A stretch of DNA of 64,000 nt, from the IMG/VR virus record IMGVR_UViG_3300030616_000016, positions 70,561-134,560 of that record. One strand, 5' to 3'. Every line of letters starts with the position of its first letter. Position 1 is the first letter of the stretch. The notes beneath the pieces are model-generated. The model saw only the letters and a program-made list of their open reading frames with translations. It did not search any database and was not told the DNA's origin. The position numbers and the translations under genes are program-made. The stretch comes from a virus. Below are positions 878 through 45,196 of the stretch, one piece after another.

Positions 878-2026
878 TTAGAACGAGTCAGCGCTTTCCT
901 TTTCTCTAACTGCTCTTTTTATTTGACTACTTAGTCTTGCGTGTGATTGCTTTTCTTTTGCTATGTCTTCTAATATTTCTATATCTTTACTGCTTAACAA
1001 CTTTCTTACTCTGATAATATCAAGGTGAGCAGCATATGATAGAGTTGCAAACAATGTTTCCAACTCCTTTTTATCACATTCATAATTCATGACTTTATGG
1101 ATCCACCCTTTATATTGCTTATATTTTTTGGATCCTATTCCACTAATTCTTCTTGCCATTGTTCTACGACTTATGTCAACTCCAAATACAACACCCAATG
1201 CACTTATTCTATTTATACCGCTTAACATAACTTTTGACTTATGTTTATTAAATCTCATTCCTTCTACTGCTACGGCCTTATTTGCGCACTTGAAAATATC
1301 ATTTATCCATTCTTTCCAGAATCTTTTAGATATGTAAGGCATAGAGCTACTTAGTTGTATGTCGTCAGCATATCTTGAATATCTGATCCTTCCATATGGC
1401 CAACCCATGCTTGACATTGTTATATCAAACTTTCTCATACATAGATTTGATATTACAGGACTTGATGGAGCACCTTGTGGTAATCCATTTGTCATTGAAA
1501 CAAGAGGTATTAATGGTATCTTATATTTTCTGCAGCATGTATCTACAGTATGTAATGATATAAGCATCTTTCTAATATGTTTTGCTTTAATAGATGGAAA
1601 GAAGTTCTTAATATCCATACTAATCATTATTCTAGCTCCATCATGTATCGACTGTAATTTGTTAATTGCAGTTTGGAAGCGTCTAGAACGTCTTAGTATT
1701 CTTCTAAAAGATTCTTGTGTTGTAAACAGCGGTTTTGGACTATATGCTAAGCTATGTCCATTTCTGTCATACTTTTGCAATAGCCATGAGACATATCTTT
1801 GTGCCGTTTTTAAGTCTTCGTCTGGCTCATGTAAATGCCTGATGCCACCTGATCTTTTTCTTATCATGTGGTGTGTATATCTTGAGTCTCTATCGTTTGA
1901 GTTTTGTTGTAAGTCTTCAAACAATTGCTGAATTGTAATACCAGATGGCAAGACTAGACTTAGAAAATTGTCAGGAGTTATATCATGAAGTCTCAGTTTC
2001 TTCTTTATCTGATTCTGTTCCATCAT
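878..2026 (-). CDS. Reverse transcriptase, retron/Abi-type (bacterial group-II-related RT)
   Basis: SGGIRHLHEPDEDLKTAQ; MDIKNFFPSI; GLPQGAPSSPVISNL; YSRYADDIQL (YADD catalytic box). The NFFPSI and LPQGAPxSPxxSN pattern is typical of retron-like RTs. The DGR-type I/LGxxxSQ motif is absent. Confidence 0.8.
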   Translation of the reverse strand: MMEQNQIKKKLRLHDITPDNFLSLVLPSGITIQQLFEDLQQNSNDRDSRYTHHMIRKRSGGIRHLHEPDEDLKTAQRYVSWLLQKYDRNGHSLAYSPKPLFTTQESFRRILRRSRRFQTAINKLQSIHDGARIMISMDIKNFFPSIKAKHIRKMLISLHTVDTCCRKYKIPLIPLVSMTNGLPQGAPSSPVISNLCMRKFDITMSSMGWPYGRIRYSRYADDIQLSSSMPYISKRFWKEWINDIFKCANKAVAVEGMRFNKHKSKVMLSGINRISALGVVFGVDISRRTMARRISGIGSKKYKQYKGWIHKVMNYECDKKELETLFATLSYAAHLDIIRVRKLLSSKDIEILEDIAKEKQSHARLSSQIKRAVREKESADSF

Positions 2027-3651: not shown

Positions 3652-3752
3652 GCTTATTGCCTTTAAGTTTCTTATAGCCTGTCCATACTAATTCCCAACA
3701 GGCTATCTTAACTACCGTAGTGTATAATCTCCAGAGAATATATCCACAATGC

Positions 3753-4139
3753 CTATTCATGGCCCATATCCTCCTCAGGATTATACAAATAGGTTTTTCT
3801 GCCTATCATAAATCCTAATATACACATCTTTGTCATGCATAAATAGATATTCTTATCAAATTCTTCATCAGTATCACTATTTTCTAATATCCATTCTAGA
3901 TGGTCTTCACATACATTATCTATGAAATGCATGAGTGATCCTTCACATTCTTCTAACCAATCTTGTATCTCATTGCTCGTCTCTCTTTCTTCGAGCAATC
4001 TGTGACATTCGGAGATTATTTCTTTGGATACCATGTTGTAATCATCAAGTGTTATTTTCTTCATTGGTTTTTGGTCTCCATGTATATTTTGCATGCCAGG
4101 TTTTCTTTGCTTCAGTTGCATTGTCGTTTGTATTATCAT
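3753..4139 (-). CDS. Hypothetical protein (start uncertain)
   Basis: Co-directional ORF with no recognisable motif. Overlaps the neighbouring ORF, so a later ATG is likely. Confidence 0.4.
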   Translation of the reverse strand: MIIQTTMQLKQRKPGMQNIHGDQKPMKKITLDDYNMVSKEIISECHRLLEERETSNEIQDWLEECEGSLMHFIDNVCEDHLEWILENSDTDEEFDKNIYLCMTKMCILGFMIGRKTYLYNPEEDMGHE

Positions 4140-4584
4140 CCTGCTTTGTTTCCTGGCTCTCGTTGGCTTCGTTCTCTGGTTTAGGATCTTCTTTCTTTTC
4201 TTCTTTGATGCGATTGTGTTGATCTAAAATATCTACATTACATGTTTTGATAAATTCATTAAAGTCTGTTTCACTTAAACAGTAATCATTAACATGAATG
4301 TGATAATGTAGATGTTCAGAATCCATCTCAGAAGAAGTTACCAGTTTACCAACAATATACAATGTAGAATCCAAATCTACAGCCTTATCTATCTCCTCTT
4401 CTTCAGGATATTCGAAGTGTAGTTCGTATATATTACTATCATTTGGAGATATACTAGTACCTCTTGCTTTATATACTTTTGTAGATAGAGCTCCTTTCTT
4501 GTCATTGTCTACGGCATCGCTCATTAAATCAATCTTGATCGCCTTCAGAACTGTCATTCCTTGATTGAACCTCTGTATTATCAT
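4045..4584 (-). CDS. Hypothetical acidic protein (start probably 4524)
   Basis: Co-directional ORF with an acidic, Lys/Glu-rich C-terminus. Confidence 0.45.
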   Translation of the reverse strand: MIIQRFNQGMTVLKAIKIDLMSDAVDNDKKGALSTKVYKARGTSISPNDSNIYELHFEYPEEEEIDKAVDLDSTLYIVGKLVTSSEMDSEHLHYHIHVNDYCLSETDFNEFIKTCNVDILDQHNRIKEEKKEDPKPENEANESQETKQDDNTNDNATEAKKTWHAKYTWRPKTNEENNT

Positions 4585-21865: not shown

Positions 21866-23164
21866 GTGACATTACCCCACGCCTAAAGGCGGGGGCTTCC
21901 TAATTCATCGAAAATTGCGTTCCATACTGGCTACGTCTTACATCTTCTCCAAAGGCTTTAGGTTCCCCTTGCCCAGGGGTACAAAATGCAAAATTCAAAA
22001 TATTACTAGATGCAAGGGCATCTCTATCGTGTTTGGCACCACAAGTGCAAGTCCAATATCTGTCACTTAGCTTAAGATTATTATTTATAGCGCCGCACTG
22101 GTTACACATCTTGCTGGATGGTTCAAATCTTCCTATAGTCAAAACATGCTTTCCATACCAACCTGCCTTATACTCAAGAAAGGTACGAAAAGTATACCAT
22201 CCAACATCAGAGATAGCCTTGGCCAAACAATGATTCTTCACCATTCCAGAAACGTTTAAATCCTCAAGACACACTGCTTGGTTCTCGTCAATGAGCCTTT
22301 TGGACAATTTATGCAAAAAATCTTTACGTTGATTAGAAATCTTCTCATGTATCAACGCTACCTTCCTACGAGCCTTGTTTCTATTTGAAGAACCTTTCTT
22401 CTTCTTTGATAATTGTTTTTGCTTTCTTGCCAATCTTCTTTCAAGTTTCTTTAGGTATCTTGGATTATCTATTTTCTCGCCTGTTGATAGTGTTGCAAAA
22501 TGTTTTAATCCAACGTCAACACCTACACTATTATCTCGTTCAGGATTACATTTGATAGGTAATTCTTCTCCATTGTCAACCAAAATAGAAGCAAAGTATT
22601 TCCCAGAAGGAGCCATGAATATAGTTACAGTTTTAATATTGCCTTCAAATTGTCTATGGAATTTGCATTTGATGCCATCACGGAATTTCATTACATATAG
22701 CCTATTATTATCAAAATCCACATTACTTCCTTGTGGAAATTGACAAGATTGCTTTTTGAATTTCTTCTTAAATTGAGGATATCTTGCCTGTTTCTTAAAA
22801 AACCGCCGGAAAGCATTGTCAAGGTTTCTAAAGGCCATTTGCAAAGATTGACTATTAACTTCCTTCAGCCAACCATGCTCAGATTTCATATGTTTCAATT
22901 GCTTTATCAAATCAAAACAGGAAGGAGATTTCCCCGTTTTTTGATAAGACTCTGTTTTCTTTTGGAGTCCCAAATTGTATATGAACCGTACACAACCAAA
23001 ATGCTTCACAAGAAGCTCCTGTTGTTTTTTGTTGGGGTATATTTTGTATTTATATGCTCGTATCATTATATTTATAGTATAGCACAGGTTTCTGTAAATG
23101 TCAAGAGAAAAACGCATTCTTATATCCCCATGGCTAAAGCCAGGGGTCTTACGAATGCACCTTG
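21866..23164 (-). mobile_element. IS200/IS605-family element carrying tnpB only (IS1341-like), 1.3 kb
   Basis: The ends are defined by comparison with copies at 33637-33883 and 62734-62781. The left end (LE) starts CAAGGTGCATTCGTAAGACCCCTGGCTTTAGCCATGGGG immediately after TTAT. The right end (RE) finishes CCCCCGCCTTTAGGCGTGGGGTAATGTCAC. Both ends have subterminal imperfect hairpins. No tnpA is present. Confidence 0.8.
21900..23066 (-). CDS. tnpB: TnpB (OrfB) RNA-guided-nuclease-family protein
   Basis: MIRAYKYKIYPNKKQQELL, GVDVGLKHFATLSTGEKIDNP (RuvC-I Asp), VCLEDLNV (RuvC-II Glu), CNQCG...CTCG (zinc finger), HDRDALASSNI (RuvC-III Asp). Confidence 0.9.
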   Translation of the reverse strand: MIRAYKYKIYPNKKQQELLVKHFGCVRFIYNLGLQKKTESYQKTGKSPSCFDLIKQLKHMKSEHGWLKEVNSQSLQMAFRNLDNAFRRFFKKQARYPQFKKKFKKQSCQFPQGSNVDFDNNRLYVMKFRDGIKCKFHRQFEGNIKTVTIFMAPSGKYFASILVDNGEELPIKCNPERDNSVGVDVGLKHFATLSTGEKIDNPRYLKKLERRLARKQKQLSKKKKGSSNRNKARRKVALIHEKISNQRKDFLHKLSKRLIDENQAVCLEDLNVSGMVKNHCLAKAISDVGWYTFRTFLEYKAGWYGKHVLTIGRFEPSSKMCNQCGAINNNLKLSDRYWTCTCGAKHDRDALASSNILNFAFCTPGQGEPKAFGEDVRRSQYGTQFSMN

Positions 23165-23296
23165 ATAAAAGAGCAGGAGGAAGGTATCCTCTTCCCCCTG
23201 CCAGGTTTCATTATCAAAAGCTCCAGCTGCTTTCAATTATCAGTTGAACGCTGGAATTCAATGAAATGTTGCATTTATGTTGTCTACGGCGCTATA

Positions 23297-23411
23297 GCCA
23301 ATTTTTAGATCTAAGTACCTGCGACCTGCCATTAGTCCAAGGACACATAAGGAATAAAATGGAGTGTCCTGAGGGACTTGAACCCTCAACTCAGGCATAG
23401 TTAATATTGGC
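23297..23411 (-). ncRNA. Circularly permuted tRNA-like element (3' half, encoded CCA, 13-nt linker, 5' half)
   Basis: Minus strand: GCCAAT-ATTAACTA-TGCCTG-AGTT-GAGGG-TTCAAGT-CCCTC-AGGACAC-T-CCA-TTTTATTCCTTAT-GTGTCCT-TG-GACT-AATGGCA-GGTC-G-CAGGTA-CTTAGATCTAAAA-ATTGGC. All four cloverleaf stems pair, but only across the permuted order. Confidence 0.4.
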
Positions 23412-23489
23412 GTTCGAGAAGACAACGCAACAAATGCTGAGCTTTCAGGGAATAGTCTGAATTTAGCGTGCTTTCATATTATCACCAGC

Positions 23490-23553
23490 TTTCGCCGCGT
23501 ATGCCAGTTCCGCCATCTTCCCATATAGTGGGAAGAGCAGGGTTCGAACCTGC
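23490..23553 (-). ncRNA. Second tRNA-like module (T-arm, 3' acceptor, 7-nt loop, 5' acceptor, D-arm)
   Basis: Minus strand: GCAGG-TTCGAAC-CCTGC-TCTTCCC-ACTATAT-GGGAAGA-TG-GCGG-AACTGGCAT-ACGC. Canonical U8, A14, G18G19 and A21 are present. No convincing anticodon stem was found. Confidence 0.3.
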
Positions 23554-23608
23554 ACGGTGAAGGAAAGTACTTATTTCAGCTTAACCTTAAGCTTCAGCTT
23601 GCCCTGTA

Positions 23609-24346
23609 TTATCCGAAAATGAAGTTACAGATGTCCTTGCCGATTTCTTTGCGTTCAACAGACGTGTTGTTTGCTTCTTCTCGTGCAAACTTGACTGCTC
23701 TCATAAGAACAGCAATTTTGTCAAGCATTTCTTTCTTACGAGTTGCAGAAATACATGTACTGAGCTTTGTAGTAGTCCAGTAACCGATAATCTCATCGCT
23801 GACTACAAGCTGAGTCTGTGCAGGATGCTTTTCAGTAGCAGCATAAAGAACGATAGGTTTCTCAACCTTACGTGTTTTATGTGTCTGACGCGCGCCTGAT
23901 TTGAACATTCCGGAATCTTCATCACGAGCCCATGTTTCTGCTGGATCCAGTTCAGGAAGTTTCTCGACATATGTTTTAATATCGTTCAGCTGTTTTTCGA
24001 GGTACAGCAAGAATGTGGGAGGGGCGTCTTTTACAATTACTGTGTCGCCAACCTTAATATCTGCTTTTGCAATGGTATTGCCAAAGTCTTTAGTTGCAGT
24101 AACATCAAACAGATCTGCGAGAGATTCCGCTACTTCGTTAATTACATTGTTCAGATTTTCTTGTACCTTTACTGATTCTTCTGGAAAGTTCTCACCTTCT
24201 TCGTCTTTAGGCTCATATACTTTATGAAGGCCATTGAATATTTGTGGTGCATCTGACAAACGATGAGCCTGAGTAATGATAGAATTATGGCGGGATTTTT
24301 CGCCCTTCTCAACTGCAATAATCTGATTAAGTTTAACTTCAGACAT
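23609..24346 (-). CDS. Conserved-looking hypothetical protein
   Basis: 245-aa ORF, visibly more GC-rich than its neighbours. It begins MSEVKLNQIIAVEKGEKSR. No family name recalled with confidence. Confidence 0.6.
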   Translation of the reverse strand: MSEVKLNQIIAVEKGEKSRHNSIITQAHRLSDAPQIFNGLHKVYEPKDEEGENFPEESVKVQENLNNVINEVAESLADLFDVTATKDFGNTIAKADIKVGDTVIVKDAPPTFLLYLEKQLNDIKTYVEKLPELDPAETWARDEDSGMFKSGARQTHKTRKVEKPIVLYAATEKHPAQTQLVVSDEIIGYWTTTKLSTCISATRKKEMLDKIAVLMRAVKFAREEANNTSVERKEIGKDICNFIFG

Positions 24347-28239: not shown

Positions 28240-29895
28240 TTATTTTTTAATACTGATAGAGAACATTTCTTTATCCTCTGTAAAGTATACACTGGTACCA
28301 TCAGTGTATAGTGGCATTGATGAGTCTATCGGCGGATTAGTAATAATGCGTTTTTGATTATCTTTAGAGATCTCAATCTTTTGATCGCTAAATACATCAA
28401 TGCAAACTCCATTATTAAGAACAATGAAATTGATATTATCAACATCGCGCTCTTCTTTGTCTAGCAGAATACCTTTATTTTCTTTGCTGCATAGTTTGAA
28501 TCGGAATCTATAATATTTACCAGATTCTTCTGCTATGCATACTAGAATTCCTCTGCTATGTTTTGCATTGATTATTCTAAGTCCATGGAGTTCCTCAATA
28601 GGACCTAGAAAACTACCAGAATCTTCTAATGGCGCATATGCCCAACATTTGTCTAGGAAGTTGCTAATTACTACTCCACTAAACATTTGATTCATAGTAC
28701 CAAGATTTTGGGATGGATTCGAGCATGCCGCGCTCTTATTCCCCATATTTTTTGCATATACCTCATATACTGAGGCGCCGTTTCTGCAAAATATACTACC
28801 ATTGTATATCATGGCTTTGTCTGCGGCAAATTTACCTGGTATATCCGTTTCTATTTCTACACAGCCATTATCAATTATGCCTAACACAGGGTCAGGAGAT
28901 AGATTGCATAGAAATGCCTTTTTATTGGATATATCCTTAAATATGGATTTACCACAGTATATTGCCTTATCCGTAAATGTATAGAAAATACCATTTAGGA
29001 ATTGTATTGATTTAATCGGCTCATTGTACTTATACATTGATTTAATGTCAAAATTTGCTGTGCTTCTTATAGTCTTTTGAACCATAGCTATATTAATTGT
29101 AGCGTCAGGTTTAGGTGGAGCGCTGCGTTTATTCTCAATGAATATTGACTTAAACCACTCCATATGAGCTTTAGGAATAACTGAGAAGTCTTGACATACG
29201 GATGGAATGGTAACCTTACTATCAAATACGGATATACCATCATCCATTCGCTTAGTAAATTCTCTTGGTTTATAGTCTGGGTGTTTACCCTTATAAGGAT
29301 GGATACCAACATAAAGCTGAAATGCTATTACTGCAAACGAGAACCAATCGCTTAGTTCTGTGAACTTTTTGGCTAAGCGGTCTCTTATTGAATCCATAAT
29401 AGCATTAGCTGGAAATGACTTTGTCTGATAACTGTCAACGTCAATAAAGTAAGGTACTTTATGACCTTTGTCTATCAGAAAGTTCATTTCATTCATATCT
29501 ACTATCAGGCATTGTTTAGAATGAATGTGCTCGACCGTGTCTTGTATATTGCGCACAATTTCTAATACTTGATTAGGAGATATATTATTATCTTTTCTGT
29601 ACTGCTTAGTAAAGAGCTTGCATAGAGCACTTGTCTCTTTAATATACTTCATTGTATATCCGATGACATTGCTTGTCTTTTTATCGCAAACAATATCTTC
29701 CGGTTTGATAACATTGCCGGCTGTTATATAGCCAAGCTCTTCAATCTTTCTTAATGGTATCATATGCTTGATATCATTATAAATCTTGAAGGCAATATTG
29801 TCTTTTTTATATACAGAACCTTGACCACCAGATGCAATAAAATCATTGTCTTTCAGGTCAAATGAAGCCTTTGTTCTATTTACAATGACTCTCAT
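28240..29895 (-). CDS. Ser/Thr protein kinase with large C-terminal domain
   Basis: IASGGQGSVYKKDNIAFKIY (Gly-rich loop and Lys). HSKQCLIVDMNEMNFLI (catalytic-loop D..N). FIDVDSY (DFG-equivalent). Confidence 0.7.
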   Translation of the reverse strand: MRVIVNRTKASFDLKDNDFIASGGQGSVYKKDNIAFKIYNDIKHMIPLRKIEELGYITAGNVIKPEDIVCDKKTSNVIGYTMKYIKETSALCKLFTKQYRKDNNISPNQVLEIVRNIQDTVEHIHSKQCLIVDMNEMNFLIDKGHKVPYFIDVDSYQTKSFPANAIMDSIRDRLAKKFTELSDWFSFAVIAFQLYVGIHPYKGKHPDYKPREFTKRMDDGISVFDSKVTIPSVCQDFSVIPKAHMEWFKSIFIENKRSAPPKPDATINIAMVQKTIRSTANFDIKSMYKYNEPIKSIQFLNGIFYTFTDKAIYCGKSIFKDISNKKAFLCNLSPDPVLGIIDNGCVEIETDIPGKFAADKAMIYNGSIFCRNGASVYEVYAKNMGNKSAACSNPSQNLGTMNQMFSGVVISNFLDKCWAYAPLEDSGSFLGPIEELHGLRIINAKHSRGILVCIAEESGKYYRFRFKLCSKENKGILLDKEERDVDNINFIVLNNGVCIDVFSDQKIEISKDNQKRIITNPPIDSSMPLYTDGTSVYFTEDKEMFSISIKK

Positions 29896-30731
29896 GGCTT
29901 ATCCTTAAGCAGTGTAGCACATGCTATATCATCAAAGTGCTTATTGTTTATTTTGGAATCCATGATGCGTATTTTCTTCATTCTTCTTTTTACAAACTCT
30001 CCTTTGAAGGTTTTATATACAGTCATTCGTATAGCGTTATCAAGCACACTTGTATTTTCAAAAGAGCTTATACCATCAGTGAACAGGCTTATGCTCATTC
30101 CTTCTGCCATTGGCGCACTAGACATTATGTATGGCTCGAACATGGGGATTGTAGAGCTCTTAAAGTCTTCGTCTGGGTTATATGACAATACTGTTTTTTC
30201 TGGATTGCCCAATATATCCATAGTATTCATATAGTCTTTAATCTTTTCATCTTCCATGCGATATGCAAGATAGTATGGCATGTTAGATGTATATGATATT
30301 TCTTCAATACGAATCCATGGATTTGGGTCATTCGCTCTATCAAAACCATCATTAAAGACAACTACTCCATCTCCCCATACTGCTATGCCAAATCCCTCAT
30401 TATTGGCTATTACTACCATAAGCGTGGCATAGAATGTCTGGATGTCAAGACAAAGAGCTATTGCTACTTTTGATAGCGCTCCCAACACTTTATTTTCAAA
30501 TGAACAAAGAGCAGTTGATAATGTCTTGTGTCCAAACATAACTATTGAGCTTCTTAATGCTTGTTCTGCAGCAATTCCAAGTATTTTTGCACCAAGGTCT
30601 GTGTTTTGTGCAGAAGAACAGCCGTCACAGACGATACCATAGGAATAACCATAGATATCGCCTGTGATAGCATAATCTTCACACATATCATGACTGGCAC
30701 CAATTTCTACAAAACTATCTTTCTGTATCAT
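29892..30731 (-). CDS. PP2C-family protein phosphatase
   Basis: IGASHDMCEDYA, VCDGCSSAQNTDLGAKI, LFTDGISSF. This is the PP2C_2-type pattern. Overlaps the kinase start by 4 nt. Confidence 0.65.
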   Translation of the reverse strand: MIQKDSFVEIGASHDMCEDYAITGDIYGYSYGIVCDGCSSAQNTDLGAKILGIAAEQALRSSIVMFGHKTLSTALCSFENKVLGALSKVAIALCLDIQTFYATLMVVIANNEGFGIAVWGDGVVVFNDGFDRANDPNPWIRIEEISYTSNMPYYLAYRMEDEKIKDYMNTMDILGNPEKTVLSYNPDEDFKSSTIPMFEPYIMSSAPMAEGMSISLFTDGISSFENTSVLDNAIRMTVYKTFKGEFVKRRMKKIRIMDSKINNKHFDDIACATLLKDKP

Positions 30732-43009: not shown

Positions 43010-44020
43010 TTACCAAGGCCAGTTAGGGACCTCGATCTTATGAACATGTTTCAAGTGATCGAATGCATAAGGCTGGAAAGGCGCTTCGACGCCATAATGA
43101 GCACGATAAGCAACTTCCCACCAGTGAGACAGGAATATCTTAGTAGCCCATCTCTTACTTCTCATATGAATCTGACTATTGGGGAGCTTGCCTTCGCGAT
43201 ATATTGCCCTCTGTTTATGACCAGGCACTCTTCGAAGAACTTCTCGTGCAATATGCGCATATTCCTTGGCTTCATTCTTACGCGACTCGATAATCTTCCT
43301 TTCAACAACAAGATGTCCATAGAGATCTTTTGGATTGTTGCATGTCATATTGAAAGACTCACCGATTTTCCAGCAGAGTGTTTTCAGTTCTGAATTCCAG
43401 GGACGCATTGACAGACCTCTGTAAAGCGTCTTGCCTGTATGAACTCCGCCTCCTTTCTGTAATGAGAGACGAAGTGCGGTAGCTGCTTTGATTCCTCCGG
43501 CTTCTTGTATCGCATTTGCTACCTTAATAGCATCTTCTTCAGATACTCTTCTTGTACTATCAGGATTAATACCGGCTTCGTCAACCATGATTTCTCTTGT
43601 AACTTTCTTGCCAAGCCAGCGCTTTCCGTCTACAAGACCAGCATAGCTATAGATATGTCCTGGAGTCTTAGCTTTGTCCATATCTATATGGGCAATAAGA
43701 CCGGCGCTGATAACAGGGCCAATACCTACAACTGATTGAGCCCATGTACCAATTTTTGTTGATAATGAGAAATGATTGAGCGCGAGCTTCACCTGATTCT
43801 CAAGACGCTCCGCATTCTTAAGAAACCAATCAAGCACTTCCATTGGAGGGTCGTCTACGCCCTGCTCTGCTGCTCTAAGCTGACCAGCAAGCCTGATTCT
43901 CTGGTTCTGCATGGTATAATAACTATCTACCAGATAGCGGGCTTCCTGACGCGTAATCTTTCTTGACGCGTTTCTTATGTCTTTACCTACTCTTTCAATA
44001 ATTTCTTCAATAGCCATCAC
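43010..44020 (-). CDS. Protein with IS110/IS116/IS902-type transposase C-terminal (HhH) domain-like region
   Basis: VVGIGPVISAGLIAHIDMDKAKTPGHIYSYAGL resembles the GIGP..A..L.AEI....F......YAGL motif. I could not see the N-terminal DEDD catalytic domain. Confidence 0.4.
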   Translation of the reverse strand: MMAIEEIIERVGKDIRNASRKITRQEARYLVDSYYTMQNQRIRLAGQLRAAEQGVDDPPMEVLDWFLKNAERLENQVKLALNHFSLSTKIGTWAQSVVGIGPVISAGLIAHIDMDKAKTPGHIYSYAGLVDGKRWLGKKVTREIMVDEAGINPDSTRRVSEEDAIKVANAIQEAGGIKAATALRLSLQKGGGVHTGKTLYRGLSMRPWNSELKTLCWKIGESFNMTCNNPKDLYGHLVVERKIIESRKNEAKEYAHIAREVLRRVPGHKQRAIYREGKLPNSQIHMRSKRWATKIFLSHWWEVAYRAHYGVEAPFQPYAFDHLKHVHKIEVPNWPW

Positions 44021-44038
44021 AATGTCTCCAAAAATTAA

Positions 44039-45196
44039 TTAAAGCATGTTTACCATGCTATTATATAGACCCGCATACTCTTGCGGGCCTGAACGTTTGC
44101 CTGGGTTATCGGACAATTTAACAGTAGGAACAAAGCCCTCTCTATTATATGAACAGGCAGTCATTTTAATAACGATATTAAGAGGATCTACTCCAACATC
44201 ATTAGTGAAATTAGTGCCTATACCATATACTGTTTTGATTCTTTTGTTTACATATTCTTCTATCTCAAGAACCTTGTCAACATCAAGAGAGTCTGAGAAT
44301 ACAATGGTTTTTGTACTTGGATCTATACCAAGGCTCTCATAGTGTTTTATTATTTTGTCAGCAAATTCCATAGGATCGCCTGAATCTTGCCTTACACCAT
44401 CCCAAAGACTCGCTCTGACATAATCAAATGATCTTAGAAACCAATCAGTTGTATAAGTATCAGTAAGCGCTATGCCTAGTTTGCCCTTATATGTCTCTGC
44501 CCATTTATCAAGGGCAATAGAAGTAGCCATTTGAGGACCAAATATGGCGCCGTGGAACATAAACCACTCATGAGCTTGTGTGCCAATTGGTCGCATGTTA
44601 TGAGTGGTTGCTAATAATACATTACTTGTACCAAGACAGTATTGTGAAATTTGTTTTCTTGTAGACATGTCATCCAGAAGTTCATTCTGTACACCAAATG
44701 AAAATCTGCGTCTGGTTCCGAATTCTATGAAGTTGACTTTGTGCTTGATGAGTTTGTCAACCTTGTCTACATTTGTTTTATATCTTTCTTTCCTGAACTT
44801 AGGCGCTATACCAAGCTTAAGATAGTATAGCTCGCTAATAGCCGCTAATAGCGGTACTTCCCATAGTATAGCAGAATACCATGGCCCGCATATTTCTACT
44901 TTGAGATCTTCGTCTGTTTGTGTAACACATACTTCATTAGGATTGAATCGATGATGTCGTAGGTATTCTAGATATGTTGAATCAAAGACTCCAATCTTTC
45001 GCATAGCTGTAATACTATCGTCTATAAAGTATGTATGTTGCATATGATCAATAAACTCATTTAATTCCTTTTGCATACTTTCAGGGAACTCAGTCTTTGT
45101 TCTTGACTTGAATTCATATTTTACTAATGCAGATGGATAGTGTTTAAGTACTGCATTTTGCATGGCGAACTTATAGAAATCATTGTCTGCTGCCAT
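44039..45196 (-). CDS. pncB: Nicotinate phosphoribosyltransferase
   Basis: NDFYKFAMQNAVLKHYP (TD-x-YK-x-TM region). LGTSNVLLATTHNMRPIGTQAHEWF (GTSN...GT.AH). 385 aa. Confidence 0.75.
   Translation of the reverse strand: MAADNDFYKFAMQNAVLKHYPSALVKYEFKSRTKTEFPESMQKELNEFIDHMQHTYFIDDSITAMRKIGVFDSTYLEYLRHHRFNPNEVCVTQTDEDLKVEICGPWYSAILWEVPLLAAISELYYLKLGIAPKFRKERYKTNVDKVDKLIKHKVNFIEFGTRRRFSFGVQNELLDDMSTRKQISQYCLGTSNVLLATTHNMRPIGTQAHEWFMFHGAIFGPQMATSIALDKWAETYKGKLGIALTDTYTTDWFLRSFDYVRASLWDGVRQDSGDPMEFADKIIKHYESLGIDPSTKTIVFSDSLDVDKVLEIEEYVNKRIKTVYGIGTNFTNDVGVDPLNIVIKMTACSYNREGFVPTVKLSDNPGKRSGPQEYAGLYNSMVNML

Follow-up and report, generated by a model that had tools for sequence, protein, structure and literature searches.

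We analysed a 64,000-nucleotide (nt) stretch of viral DNA, positions 70,561 to 134,560 of the IMG/VR record IMGVR_UViG_3300030616_000016, which is part of a 231.6-kb metagenomic contig and is referred to below as the window. Its minus strand carries a gene for a protein of the DUF7873 family and, beginning 3 nt past the stop codon of that gene, a conserved non-coding RNA of ~440 nt. This RNA holds two modules that resemble transfer RNAs (tRNAs) in which the 3′ half is encoded upstream of the 5′ half. In order, it consists of a leader, module 1, an inter-module block, module 2 on a long stem, a 3′ hairpin domain and a terminal hairpin. Sequence comparison makes it probable, in our judgement, that this is a new and widespread tRNA-mimic RNA with two permuted tRNA-like domains, acting as a ribonucleoprotein (RNP) with DUF7873. 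The features of the locus are listed below from 5′ to 3′, with the pairing and conservation that apply to each; L003 and L005 are two related contigs, P1 is the outer helix of module 2 and MFE denotes the minimum-free-energy structure.

23609-24346, minus strand: DUF7873 gene, 245 amino acids (Pfam PF25283, E = 8e-90), the upstream partner of the RNA
23167-23606, minus strand: the whole conserved non-coding RNA, ~440 nt (collinearity with L003 and L005, group-wise consensus folds, fold z)
23591-23606, minus strand: 5′ leader CAGGGCAAGCUGAAGC, the 5′ strand of a basal helix enclosing module 1; pairs with 23460-23433
23554-23567, minus strand: 5′ strand of the module 1 closing stem, CUUUC..UCACC, then GU; pairs with GGUGA..GAAAG at 23486-23471
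23537-23553, minus strand: module 1 T-arm, GCAGG-UUCGAAC-CCUGC (100% paired in 23 sequences, compensatory changes at 2 of 5 pairs)
23516-23536, minus strand: module 1 acceptor stem-loop, 3′ strand UCUUCCC (23536-23530), 7-nt loop ACUAUAU, 5′ strand GGGAAGA (23522-23516); 100% paired, changes on both sides at 6 of 7 pairs
23497-23515, minus strand: module 1 U8, G9 and tRNA-Leu-type D-arm GCG-GAACUGGCAUA-CGC (D-arm at 23513-23497, with A14 and GG; U8 and A14 in 64 of 64 loci)
23471-23496, minus strand: small extra hairpin GGC-GAAA-GCU and 3′ strand of the module 1 closing stem (MFE, consensus folds)
23433-23460, minus strand: conserved inter-module block UCAGACUAUUCCCUGAAAGCUCAGCAUU, 3′ strand of the basal helix (near-invariant in L003 and L005)
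23398-23432, minus strand: 5′ strand of the long irregular stem under module 2, with the P1 strand GCCAAU and the junction strand AUUAACUA
23388-23397, minus strand: 3′ strand UGCCUG of the anticodon-like closing stem of module 2, and 4-nt variable region AGUU (77-85% of cells paired)
23371-23387, minus strand: module 2 T-arm, GAGGG-UUCAAGU-CCCUC (99.9-100% paired, changes on both sides at 4 of 5 pairs)
23340-23370, minus strand: module 2 acceptor stem-loop, 3′ strand AGGACAC, loop UCCA plus 13 nt, 5′ strand GUGUCCU (23346-23340); 98-99% paired, changes on both sides at 7 of 7 pairs
23323-23339, minus strand: module 2 U8, G9 and D-arm GACU-AAUGGCA-GGUC (D-arm at 23337-23323; 88-94% of cells paired, changes on both sides at 4 of 4 pairs)
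23297-23322, minus strand: G26, 5′ strand CAGGUA of the closing stem, the anticodon-loop-like segment CUUAGAU of module 2, junction CUAAAA and the P1 3′ strand AUUGGC
23268-23296, minus strand: 3′ strand of the long stem of module 2, UAUAGCGCCGUAGACAACAUAAAUGCAAC, including a conserved block of (U)UAAACGYCGU type
23221-23256, minus strand: 3′ domain, a 7-bp stem UUCCAGC/GCUGGAG around a 5-bp stem with the 7-nt loop CUGAUAA (MFE, consensus folds)
23163-23202, minus strand: terminal hairpin of 12 bp with a GGAUAC loop, then a U-run (terminator scan; hairpin proper 23202-23172)

An earlier note on this DNA had described the motifs between 23553 and 23297 as tandem permuted modules. On direct reading of 23900-23000, all the motifs that it listed are present on the minus strand. 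In both modules the T-arm leads into a 7-bp acceptor stem closed by a loop, which is followed by U8 and the D-arm; with the variable region in front and the closing stem behind, this strand order is that of a circularly permuted tRNA. Module 2 also closes as a cloverleaf: CAGGTA (23321-23316) pairs with TGCCTG (23397-23392), which ends 4 nt before the T-stem, and outside it GCCAAT (23411-23406) pairs with ATTGGC (23302-23297). That no ordinary tRNA can be drawn here is borne out as well. ARAGORN finds neither a tRNA nor a transfer-messenger RNA (tmRNA) in the whole window, and a scan of the window against Rfam 15 returns nothing at gathering thresholds. A permissive local Rfam search gives, at best, an ordinary-order tRNA match of 17.4 bits at 23529-23603 (minus strand), below the 29-bit gathering score of RF00005, which borrows the T-arm of module 1; we treat it as coincidental because its upstream D-arm-like sequence AGCTTAAGGTTAAGCT is not conserved in relatives. 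Once module 2 is rotated, by contrast with its native order, ARAGORN calls it as tRNA-Leu(tag), or as an intron-bearing tRNA if the junction is retained. For module 1, which lacks an anticodon arm, rotation was tested with an artificial loop.

The topology of circularly permuted tRNAs is thus confirmed. The further suggestion of the earlier note, that the modules stand as independent permuted tRNA genes or intron-exon units, did not hold: because conserved structure and group-wise folds span the whole region, we describe a single multi-domain RNA of ~440 nt, linked to DUF7873, rather than two genes. The ~450-nt region between the upstream open reading frame (ORF) and the terminator has a fold z of −4.4 against shuffled controls, and in its MFE structure both modules are multi-branch junctions on stems formed by their own flanks. 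A covariance model of module 2 (R1), built from relatives and run on the window and on the bacterial and viral loci, scores module 2 of the window at 110 bits (E = 5e-27, 23290-23427), meets module 1 as a partial match over T-arm, acceptor and D-arm, and finds no further copy. The pattern is far beyond chance.

A search for homologues of DUF7873 returned 5,368 proteins. The nearest relatives, at 57% identity, belong to phage-like contigs and, like the gene in the window, stand ahead of a gene-free gap of ~500 nt. In L003 and L005 this gap is collinear with the window through the leader, both modules, the inter-module block, the block after module 2, the hairpin domain and the terminal hairpin, and the acceptor stems have other sequences that are still complementary. 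An independent short contig from another sample is identical to the window region. An ordinary tRNA in the relatives would have marked the window copy as a rearrangement scar; instead, the relatives keep the permuted order.

The association of gene and RNA was recovered from either side. Anchored on the RNA, a module 1 pattern found further viral contigs in which tblastn places DUF7873 directly upstream, at 32-40% identity. Anchored on the protein, the DUF7873 profile matches at least 589 species genomes, among them Streptomyces and other actinomycetes, Myxococcota, Acidobacteriota, Abditibacteriota and Herpetosiphon. Eighty bacterial loci were fetched from these, and a simple structural regular expression places the modules ~90 and ~260 nt past the stop codon in most. 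R1 gives full-length matches of 60-112 bits in 78 of the 80 bacterial genomes, and L047 is an exception with 46.6 bits only; of 80 viral contigs, sampled from at least 115 that carry the gene, ~72 have matches of at least 52 bits. When the flanking ORFs of 86 loci were clustered within 2.5 kb, no other conserved neighbours of the gene-RNA pair emerged beyond within-genus synteny. On this sequence evidence, DUF7873 and the RNA form an ancient module of two parts that is complete in itself and is distributed over bacterial phyla and many phages. Judged by Rfam 15 and by the literature that could be searched, the pair appears to be undescribed; a literature search found no mention of DUF7873 and no description of such an RNA.

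Searches for close matches gave nothing: the region had no megablast match among phages, a scan of viral contigs with the single protein found no relative, and an exact 24-mer of module 2 had no match. The invariant 16-mer AGACTATTCCCTGAAA, tried as a marker in viral contigs, produced 7 matches, all by chance and within coding sequence. The composite module 1 pattern also caught ordinary adjacent tRNA pairs in L015 and L017, and those two were discarded. Separately, a high-GC viral contig (L014, 8395-8863, plus strand) holds three partial matches over T-arm, acceptor and D-arm (22.6-34.9 bits) and no DUF7873 by tblastn; it may represent a divergent or protein-less version of the RNA.

Covariation in module 2 was assessed in an unguided MAFFT alignment of 24 diverse sequences and in a second set of 145 distinct, model-aligned sequences. 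In the first alignment 26 of the 27 pairs changed on both sides. The T-arm was paired in 100% of cells (99.9% in the second set) with both-side changes at 4 of 5 pairs, the closed acceptor stem in 98.2% (99.3%) with changes at 7 of 7, and the D-arm in 93.8% (87.4%) with changes at 4 of 4; the anticodon-like closing stem reached 77.3% (85.2%), with 5 of 5, and P1 54.1% (65.9%), with 6 of 6. The covariation score of 0.760 compares with 0.237 for shuffled alignments, none of 500 shuffles reaching it, and with 0.144-0.286 for slid controls. For module 1, tested in 23 diverse sequences, the T-arm, acceptor stem and D-stem were paired in 100% of cells with compensatory changes at 10 of 15 pairs, including G-C to C-G in the D-stem, and again none of 500 shuffles reached the score. 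The complementarities singled out by the earlier note therefore covary strongly across relatives.

Helices outside the modules follow suit. The basal helix is CAGGG/CCCUG in the phage group, CUUGGA/UUCCAAG in Acidobacteria and GGAGCG/CGCUCC in Actinobacteria according to group-wise consensus folds, and the closing stem of module 1 has equivalents of other sequence in relatives, such as GUUGUC/GACAAC in L003. Within the phage group the long stem under module 2 changes from GUUGUC/GACAAC in the window to GUCAUUC/GAAUGAC in L003 and GUUGUUC/GAACAAC in L005. Taken from these alignments, the stems of both modules covary across phyla, and the long-range helices do so between phyla as well. A candidate pseudoknot would join GCUSAGC of the leader to the second UCAGC in the inter-module block.

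The nucleotides that build the tRNA elbow are kept in both domains: U8, A14, G18-G19, the 15:48 pair and a UUCRA T-loop. Counted over 64 loci per module, U8 is present in 64 of 64 in both modules and A14 in 64 of 64 for module 1 and 62 of 64 for module 2, and 127 of the 128 Levitt pairs (15:48) are either A:U or G:C. In module 2 of the window U48 pairs with A15, a combination that becomes G:C in 3 loci. The acceptor 3′ strands take 28 and 36 distinct sequences among the 64 loci.

Beyond the modules, the inter-module block is conserved across phyla as TCAGACTnTTnCnC..AGAnTCAGCAT, and acidobacterial members have a hairpin at the position equivalent to GGC-GAAA-GCU. Some bacterial members (L025, L037 and the acidobacterial group generally) carry extra 5′ hairpins and a spacer between the gene and the leader, seen in L025 and L037 over the first ~200 nt past the stop codon, so that module 1 starts 214-257 nt past the stop codon compared with the usual ~50-110 nt. 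Because this extra sequence separates the DUF7873 gene from the leader, the RNA of these lineages may have its own promoter. Where the window has the reduced hairpin at 23256-23221, some bacterial members hold a full tRNA-like element in ordinary order; it is found in 24 of 119 loci, always equally far downstream of module 2. We considered whether this element is always a tRNA-Leu, and this was ruled out: its anticodons are very diverse, change even between close relatives and are sometimes malformed. With an anticodon that varies so freely, the element behaves as expected of a structural tRNA-like domain. Across phyla the terminal hairpin retains its loop, GGAUAC or GGCUAC, and a ...CCGCU tail, even where, as in high-GC members, the T-run is missing; on sequence grounds it is taken as the 3′ end of the RNA and an intrinsic terminator. 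At the module 2 junction, overlapping CUUAGAU, the window also contains a perfect 10-nt palindrome, UUAGAUCUAA (23305-23314, minus strand). It was considered as a dimerisation site and set aside, being palindromic also in L024 and L037, but not in most relatives.

Features relevant to processing were counted in 116 distinct module 1 and 100 distinct module 2 sequences. The acceptor stem is paired at 7 of 7 positions in 95% of module 1 and 91% of module 2 sequences, and G occupies +1 in 85% and 80%. The discriminator is A in 91% (106/116) of module 1 sequences and U or G in 93% of module 2 sequences. N-CCA follows the 3′ strand directly in 34% and 44% (44/100), respectively, compared with ~1.6% by chance, which is an enrichment of more than 20-fold. 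Module 1 also shows a resemblance to tRNA-Leu: from U8 through the D-arm, the window matches the tRNA-Leu(gag) of phage Mimi at 18 of 19 positions, and the D-arm of module 1 in L020 is closest to the tRNA-Leu(taa) of its own genome. Actinobacterial members have another type of module 1 D-arm.

DUF7873 is encoded in 75 cultured phage records. These include the Arthrobacter phages Mimi, Racecar and Talia1610, Rhodococcus phage NiceHouse, the Gordonia phages Phendrix, GodonK and Ronaldo-like phages, Rhizobium phages RHph, phages of Klebsiella and Serratia (~300 kb), Ralstonia phage phiRSL1, and phages of Vibrio and Pseudanabaena. In all three records inspected (Mimi, Phendrix and RHph_Y65) the gene lies inside a tRNA array and is followed by an unannotated gap of 400-500 nt, in which the R1 scores for the three are 79 bits, 75 plus 54 bits, and 43 bits. 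Within 3 kb, tRNAs occur at 50 of the 80 viral loci, with at least three at 27 of them; all 225 share the strand of the gene. Nearby tRNAs occur at 19 of the 80 bacterial loci, one each save for one locus with two. In phages, then, the RNA-gene pair usually lies inside tRNA arrays and on the same strand. It seems that phages have repeatedly acquired the pair and placed it among their tRNA genes.

Phendrix (L183) is of separate interest for two annotated tRNA-Leu genes, at 3734-3808 and 4506-4580. Both are only 75 nt long, the length of class I tRNAs, and lack a long variable arm. In their D-arms (UAGCCCAACUGGCAGAGGC and UGGCCCAAUCGGCAGAGGC) the two are very similar to module 1 of the actinobacterial type, and the first of the two genes directly adjoins the RNA downstream.

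The gene content of the window resembles that of a jumbo phage, with a split RNA polymerase beta-like ORF, a nicotinate phosphoribosyltransferase (NAPRTase), helicases, a reverse transcriptase and TnpB, and nearly all genes lie on one strand. Downstream of the RNA is an IS605-family, TnpB-only element (21900-23150, minus strand) with OrfB_IS605, Cas12f1-like TNB and helix-turn-helix domains; according to the source contig, the TnpB ORF has 388 amino acids and starts at 23066. A strong promoter of its own, TTGACA-17-TATACT, lies at 23104-23076, downstream of the terminal hairpin, and a left-end-like hairpin, CCCCTGGCTTTAGCCATGGGG, was recognised by eye at ~23130-23150. The insertion point is ~15-20 nt beyond the RNA terminator. 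The earlier note had allowed that tnpB disrupted part of the locus, a suspicion that is not borne out: neither L003 nor L005 has tnpB, and from the collinearity of the window RNA with these relatives through the terminal hairpin (23202-23172) it follows that tnpB inserted outside the RNA.

Elsewhere in the window, a Ser/Thr kinase-like ORF (551 amino acids; weak PADLOC matches to mad6 and PD-T4-6) and a PP2C phosphatase (279 amino acids) occupy 28240-30731 (minus strand), upstream of an S41 peptidase and a PspA/IM30-like protein; this set may be a phage signalling or anti-defence cassette. The reverse transcriptase (RVT_1, E = 8e-20) is at 878-2026 (minus strand), and an IS110-family-like transposase fragment (Transposase_20) lies beside the phage NAPRTase at 43010-45196 (minus strand). 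In L005, NAMPT/NAPRTase and NUDIX genes are found just upstream of DUF7873, so that, counting the NAPRTase of the window, the phage group repeatedly has genes of NAD salvage near DUF7873 and its RNA.

Returning to the RNA, its structure and genomic linkage are strongly supported, and RNP formation, processing and function are inferred. We propose that it would be co-transcribed with DUF7873, because the two are 3 nt apart with no strong promoter between them, and that it would fold into two L-shaped tRNA mimics and work as an RNP with the protein. By analogy with YrlA Y RNAs and Ro60, the tRNA-like domains may engage proteins that recognise the shape of tRNA. The acceptor loops would be opened by RNase P, and the 3′ end would be trimmed or receive CCA, as in the YrlA of Mycobacterium smegmatis, a Y RNA with a 7-bp acceptor stem that is cut by RNase P and to which CCA is added (Chen et al. 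2014, PMC4201824). Opening by RNase P is probable by this precedent, together with the 7-bp stem, G at +1, the discriminator and N-CCA of the modules. The product would be a nicked RNA in several pieces, held together by the acceptor stems. As to function, a role in tRNA metabolism or tRNA quality control, or in protecting the tRNA pool, is suggested by where the pair sits in phage tRNA arrays.

Several observations weigh against this proposal. The case for an RNP with DUF7873 is one of genomic linkage, and comparisons of DUF7873 by sequence and by its structure model (predicted local distance difference test score 86.5) yielded no informative relative; nor could an RNA-binding domain be recognised. 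Linkage itself has exceptions: the gene of Herpetosiphon aurantiacus (L080) has no detectable RNA within 2.5 kb, and in L042 the RNA (80 bits; 4177-4302, minus strand) is on the other strand, at a distance of ~1 kb from DUF7873. At −1, the U favoured by RNase P is present in only 36% of module 1 and 60% of module 2 sequences, some acceptor loops have 6 nt only, and CCA is absent in more than half of the members. Finally, ARAGORN finds no tRNA genes in the window, so that the argument from tRNA arrays does not apply to this particular phage region.

Other explanations must be set beside this one. If the modules were genuine circularly permuted tRNA genes, a circle would be formed by cutting and ligation on the anticodon side, and RNase P and RNase Z would open the acceptor loop to leave a tRNA that decodes normally. 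The ARAGORN calls on rotated module 2, the 7-bp acceptor with its discriminator base and enriched N-CCA, the C-U-N-A-G-A-N that follows the closing stem in many non-actinobacterial members and the position inside phage tRNA arrays would all fit such genes. However, inspection of the junction shows no bulge-helix-bulge motif (two 3-nt bulges around a 4-bp helix). The closing stem and P1, of 6 bp each, are instead separated by an asymmetric internal loop of 8 nt on one side and 13 nt on the other, and no splicing endonuclease is known in bacteria (10.1101/312249). The anticodon-like CUNAGA is kept in only ~1/4 of members, which rules it out as a universal ‘Leu anticodon loop’, and module 1 has no equivalent of an anticodon loop at all. 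Moreover, the modules never occur alone, being always paired in a larger RNA with non-tRNA blocks beside DUF7873, and there is free variation of discriminators and of acceptor stems, whose sequences differ widely between close relatives, a poor fit to a fixed amino-acid identity. We thus regard permuted tRNA genes as extremely improbable, and maturation into working tRNAs as unlikely. Another reading would have the CCA-ended modules of a nicked RNA, opened by RNase P and 3′ processing, aminoacylated or bound by a synthetase, with module 1 a minimal tRNA-Leu-like substrate of leucyl-tRNA synthetase (LeuRS) or a decoy for it, and with DUF7873 using or regulating charged RNA outside normal translation. 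LeuRS is proposed because module 1 keeps A73, A15:U48 and the tRNA-Leu D-arm; the identity set of Escherichia coli LeuRS is A73 with the D/T tertiary core, and the anticodon arm is dispensable. In favour of this reading, the discriminator A of module 1 is found in 106 of 116 sequences, A15:U48 in 64 of 64 and the D-arm agreement with a phage tRNA-Leu is 18 of 19, while N-CCA exceeds chance more than 20-fold and M. smegmatis YrlA is both cut by RNase P and given CCA (PMC4201824). Against it stand the different D-arm type of actinobacterial module 1, the U or G discriminator of module 2, the many loops without CCA and the lack of any similarity, in sequence or structure comparison, between DUF7873 and enzymes that use aminoacyl-tRNA. 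Charging or synthetase binding is accordingly doubtful. It is equally a long shot that an RNP of CCA-ended nicked mimics, with module 1 charged by or sequestering LeuRS, would sense or buffer tRNA or the aminoacylation machinery, and that phages, keeping it among the genes of their tRNA arrays, would use it during infection to manipulate or protect host translation.

Alternatively, the RNA could be a true Y RNA like YrlA and YrlB, with a Ro60/Rsr partner encoded at some other place in the genome and with DUF7873 a mere neighbour. Its modules have the arm order of YrlA (PMC4201824), a Streptomyces module 1 has YrlA as its best Rfam match (27.1 bits), tandem Y RNAs from one precursor are known (YrlA and YrlB of M. 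smegmatis), and module 2 sits on a long irregular stem, like the Ro-binding stem. This is nonetheless highly unlikely: no TROVE gene occurs within 2.5 kb in 86 loci or in the 64-kb window, a search confined to these flanks and the window; the Ro-binding motif GNCGAAN0-1G is at the level of chance (25 of 118 RNAs, with 23.5 expected from shuffles) and takes no consistent position; the Rfam scores are below threshold; and the linkage to DUF7873 is invariable. A cis-acting element in the 3′ untranslated region of the DUF7873 mRNA, serving as a stabiliser or processing signal and without any role in trans, would account for a start 3 nt past the stop codon with no strong promoter between, and decayed tandem tRNA genes would account for the arm order, as this local arrangement also arises wherever a tRNA gene meets a second, tandem copy of itself (10.1101/312249) and two false-positive pattern matches were indeed adjacent tRNAs. 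Yet a multi-domain structure of ~440 nt with compensatory changes across phyla and single-stranded blocks exceeds the needs of a stabiliser, and the RNA of L042, on the strand opposite to the gene, still scores 80 bits. Purifying selection and an identical layout in more than 150 loci exclude decay. We therefore consider either origin very improbable.

Should the linkage of DUF7873 and the tRNA-mimic RNA reflect a real RNP, it would be a second major class of tRNA-mimic RNP in bacteria and phages beside Ro60-Y RNA, with a far more elaborate RNA. Among the bacterial species sampled, at least 589 have the gene (Streptomyces, myxobacteria and Acidobacteriota are examples), and it is also known from no fewer than 115 viral contigs and from 75 records of cultured phages. 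The RNA explains the unannotated gap of 400-500 nt in the three cultured phage records examined. Current discussion of phage tRNA arrays centres on codon usage and on how phages evade defences that target tRNAs, and the presence of the pair in them offers a testable link to tRNA biology, for which Arthrobacter phage Mimi, Gordonia phage Phendrix, Ralstonia phage phiRSL1 and Streptomyces are tractable systems. The system also bears on the origin of tRNA mimics from dimeric tRNA precursors and on bacterial processing of permuted tRNA-like RNAs.

Among known systems, two-piece permuted tmRNA occurs in alphaproteobacteria, cyanobacteria and some betaproteobacteria. There, as here, the T-arm and the 3′ acceptor strand precede the 5′ acceptor strand; in tmRNA the intervening segment is processed out. 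The DUF7873-linked RNA differs in having a full D-arm and no tag reading frame, and the tmRNA search with ARAGORN is negative. Its acceptor position 3:70 is G-C in both modules and not the G3:U70 alanine identity pair of tmRNA. Both tmRNA and ordinary tRNA are excluded. GOLLD and ROOL are large multi-domain RNAs, often carried by phages and often near or among tRNA genes. The likeness to them is one of context only, as the RNA described here is built of tRNA-like domains, is tied to one protein gene and matches neither family in Rfam.

Permuted tRNA genes are known from Cyanidioschyzon merolae, other algae and Thermofilum pendens (PMC3978253, PMC3218864). They share with our modules the upstream position of the 3′ half, the acceptor closed by a loop and ends that pair on the anticodon side. 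Their precursors, in contrast, have a bulge-helix-bulge and mature by way of a circular intermediate into decoding tRNAs, in organisms equipped with the splicing endonuclease, whereas the DUF7873-linked RNA shows no such motif, has no conserved anticodon, occurs in bacteria and phages, and holds its modules within a larger RNA tied to a protein gene.

The closest known class, by sequence and arrangement, is that of the YrlA Y RNAs. These consist of a T stem-loop, a closed acceptor stem-loop and a D stem-loop, and are reported in more than 250 bacteria and 22 phages, with genes within 4 kb of Ro60 and on the same strand (Chen et al. 2014, PMC4201824). The remark of the earlier note, which was aware of no such arrangement in phages, therefore does not apply to this layout. 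YrlA, with its closed acceptor stem, has been likened to circularly permuted tRNAs, and TruB and DusA act on it as modifying enzymes (PMC4201824; Wang et al. 2018, bioRxiv 10.1101/312249). Both modules of the DUF7873-linked RNA follow its arm order, with support from covariation, and continue into a stem formed by their own flanks; tRNA tertiary nucleotides are likewise conserved, both kinds of RNA occur in bacteria and phages, and the tandem modules recall the YrlA and YrlB that M. smegmatis makes from one precursor. The best Rfam match of module 1 in one Streptomyces (L070) is a full-length match to YrlA (E = 0.0014), although its 27.1 bits are below the 69-bit gathering score of RF02553, which none of 13 loci reaches; in the window YrlA has no match at the gathering threshold or at E ≤ 10. 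No TROVE/Ro60 gene is found among the Pfam-scanned ORFs of the window or in the flanks of L070, L024 and L043, which represent three phyla, and the partner gene is DUF7873 instead. A strict 7-bp acceptor stem sets the RNA apart from the majority of YrlA RNAs, in which this stem is shorter, and the two modules are fixed in a ~440-nt RNA together with a basal helix, single-stranded blocks, a 3′ domain and a terminal hairpin. Put simply, the DUF7873-linked RNA would work like a tRNA mimic of the YrlA type, yet it stands outside the YrlA family.

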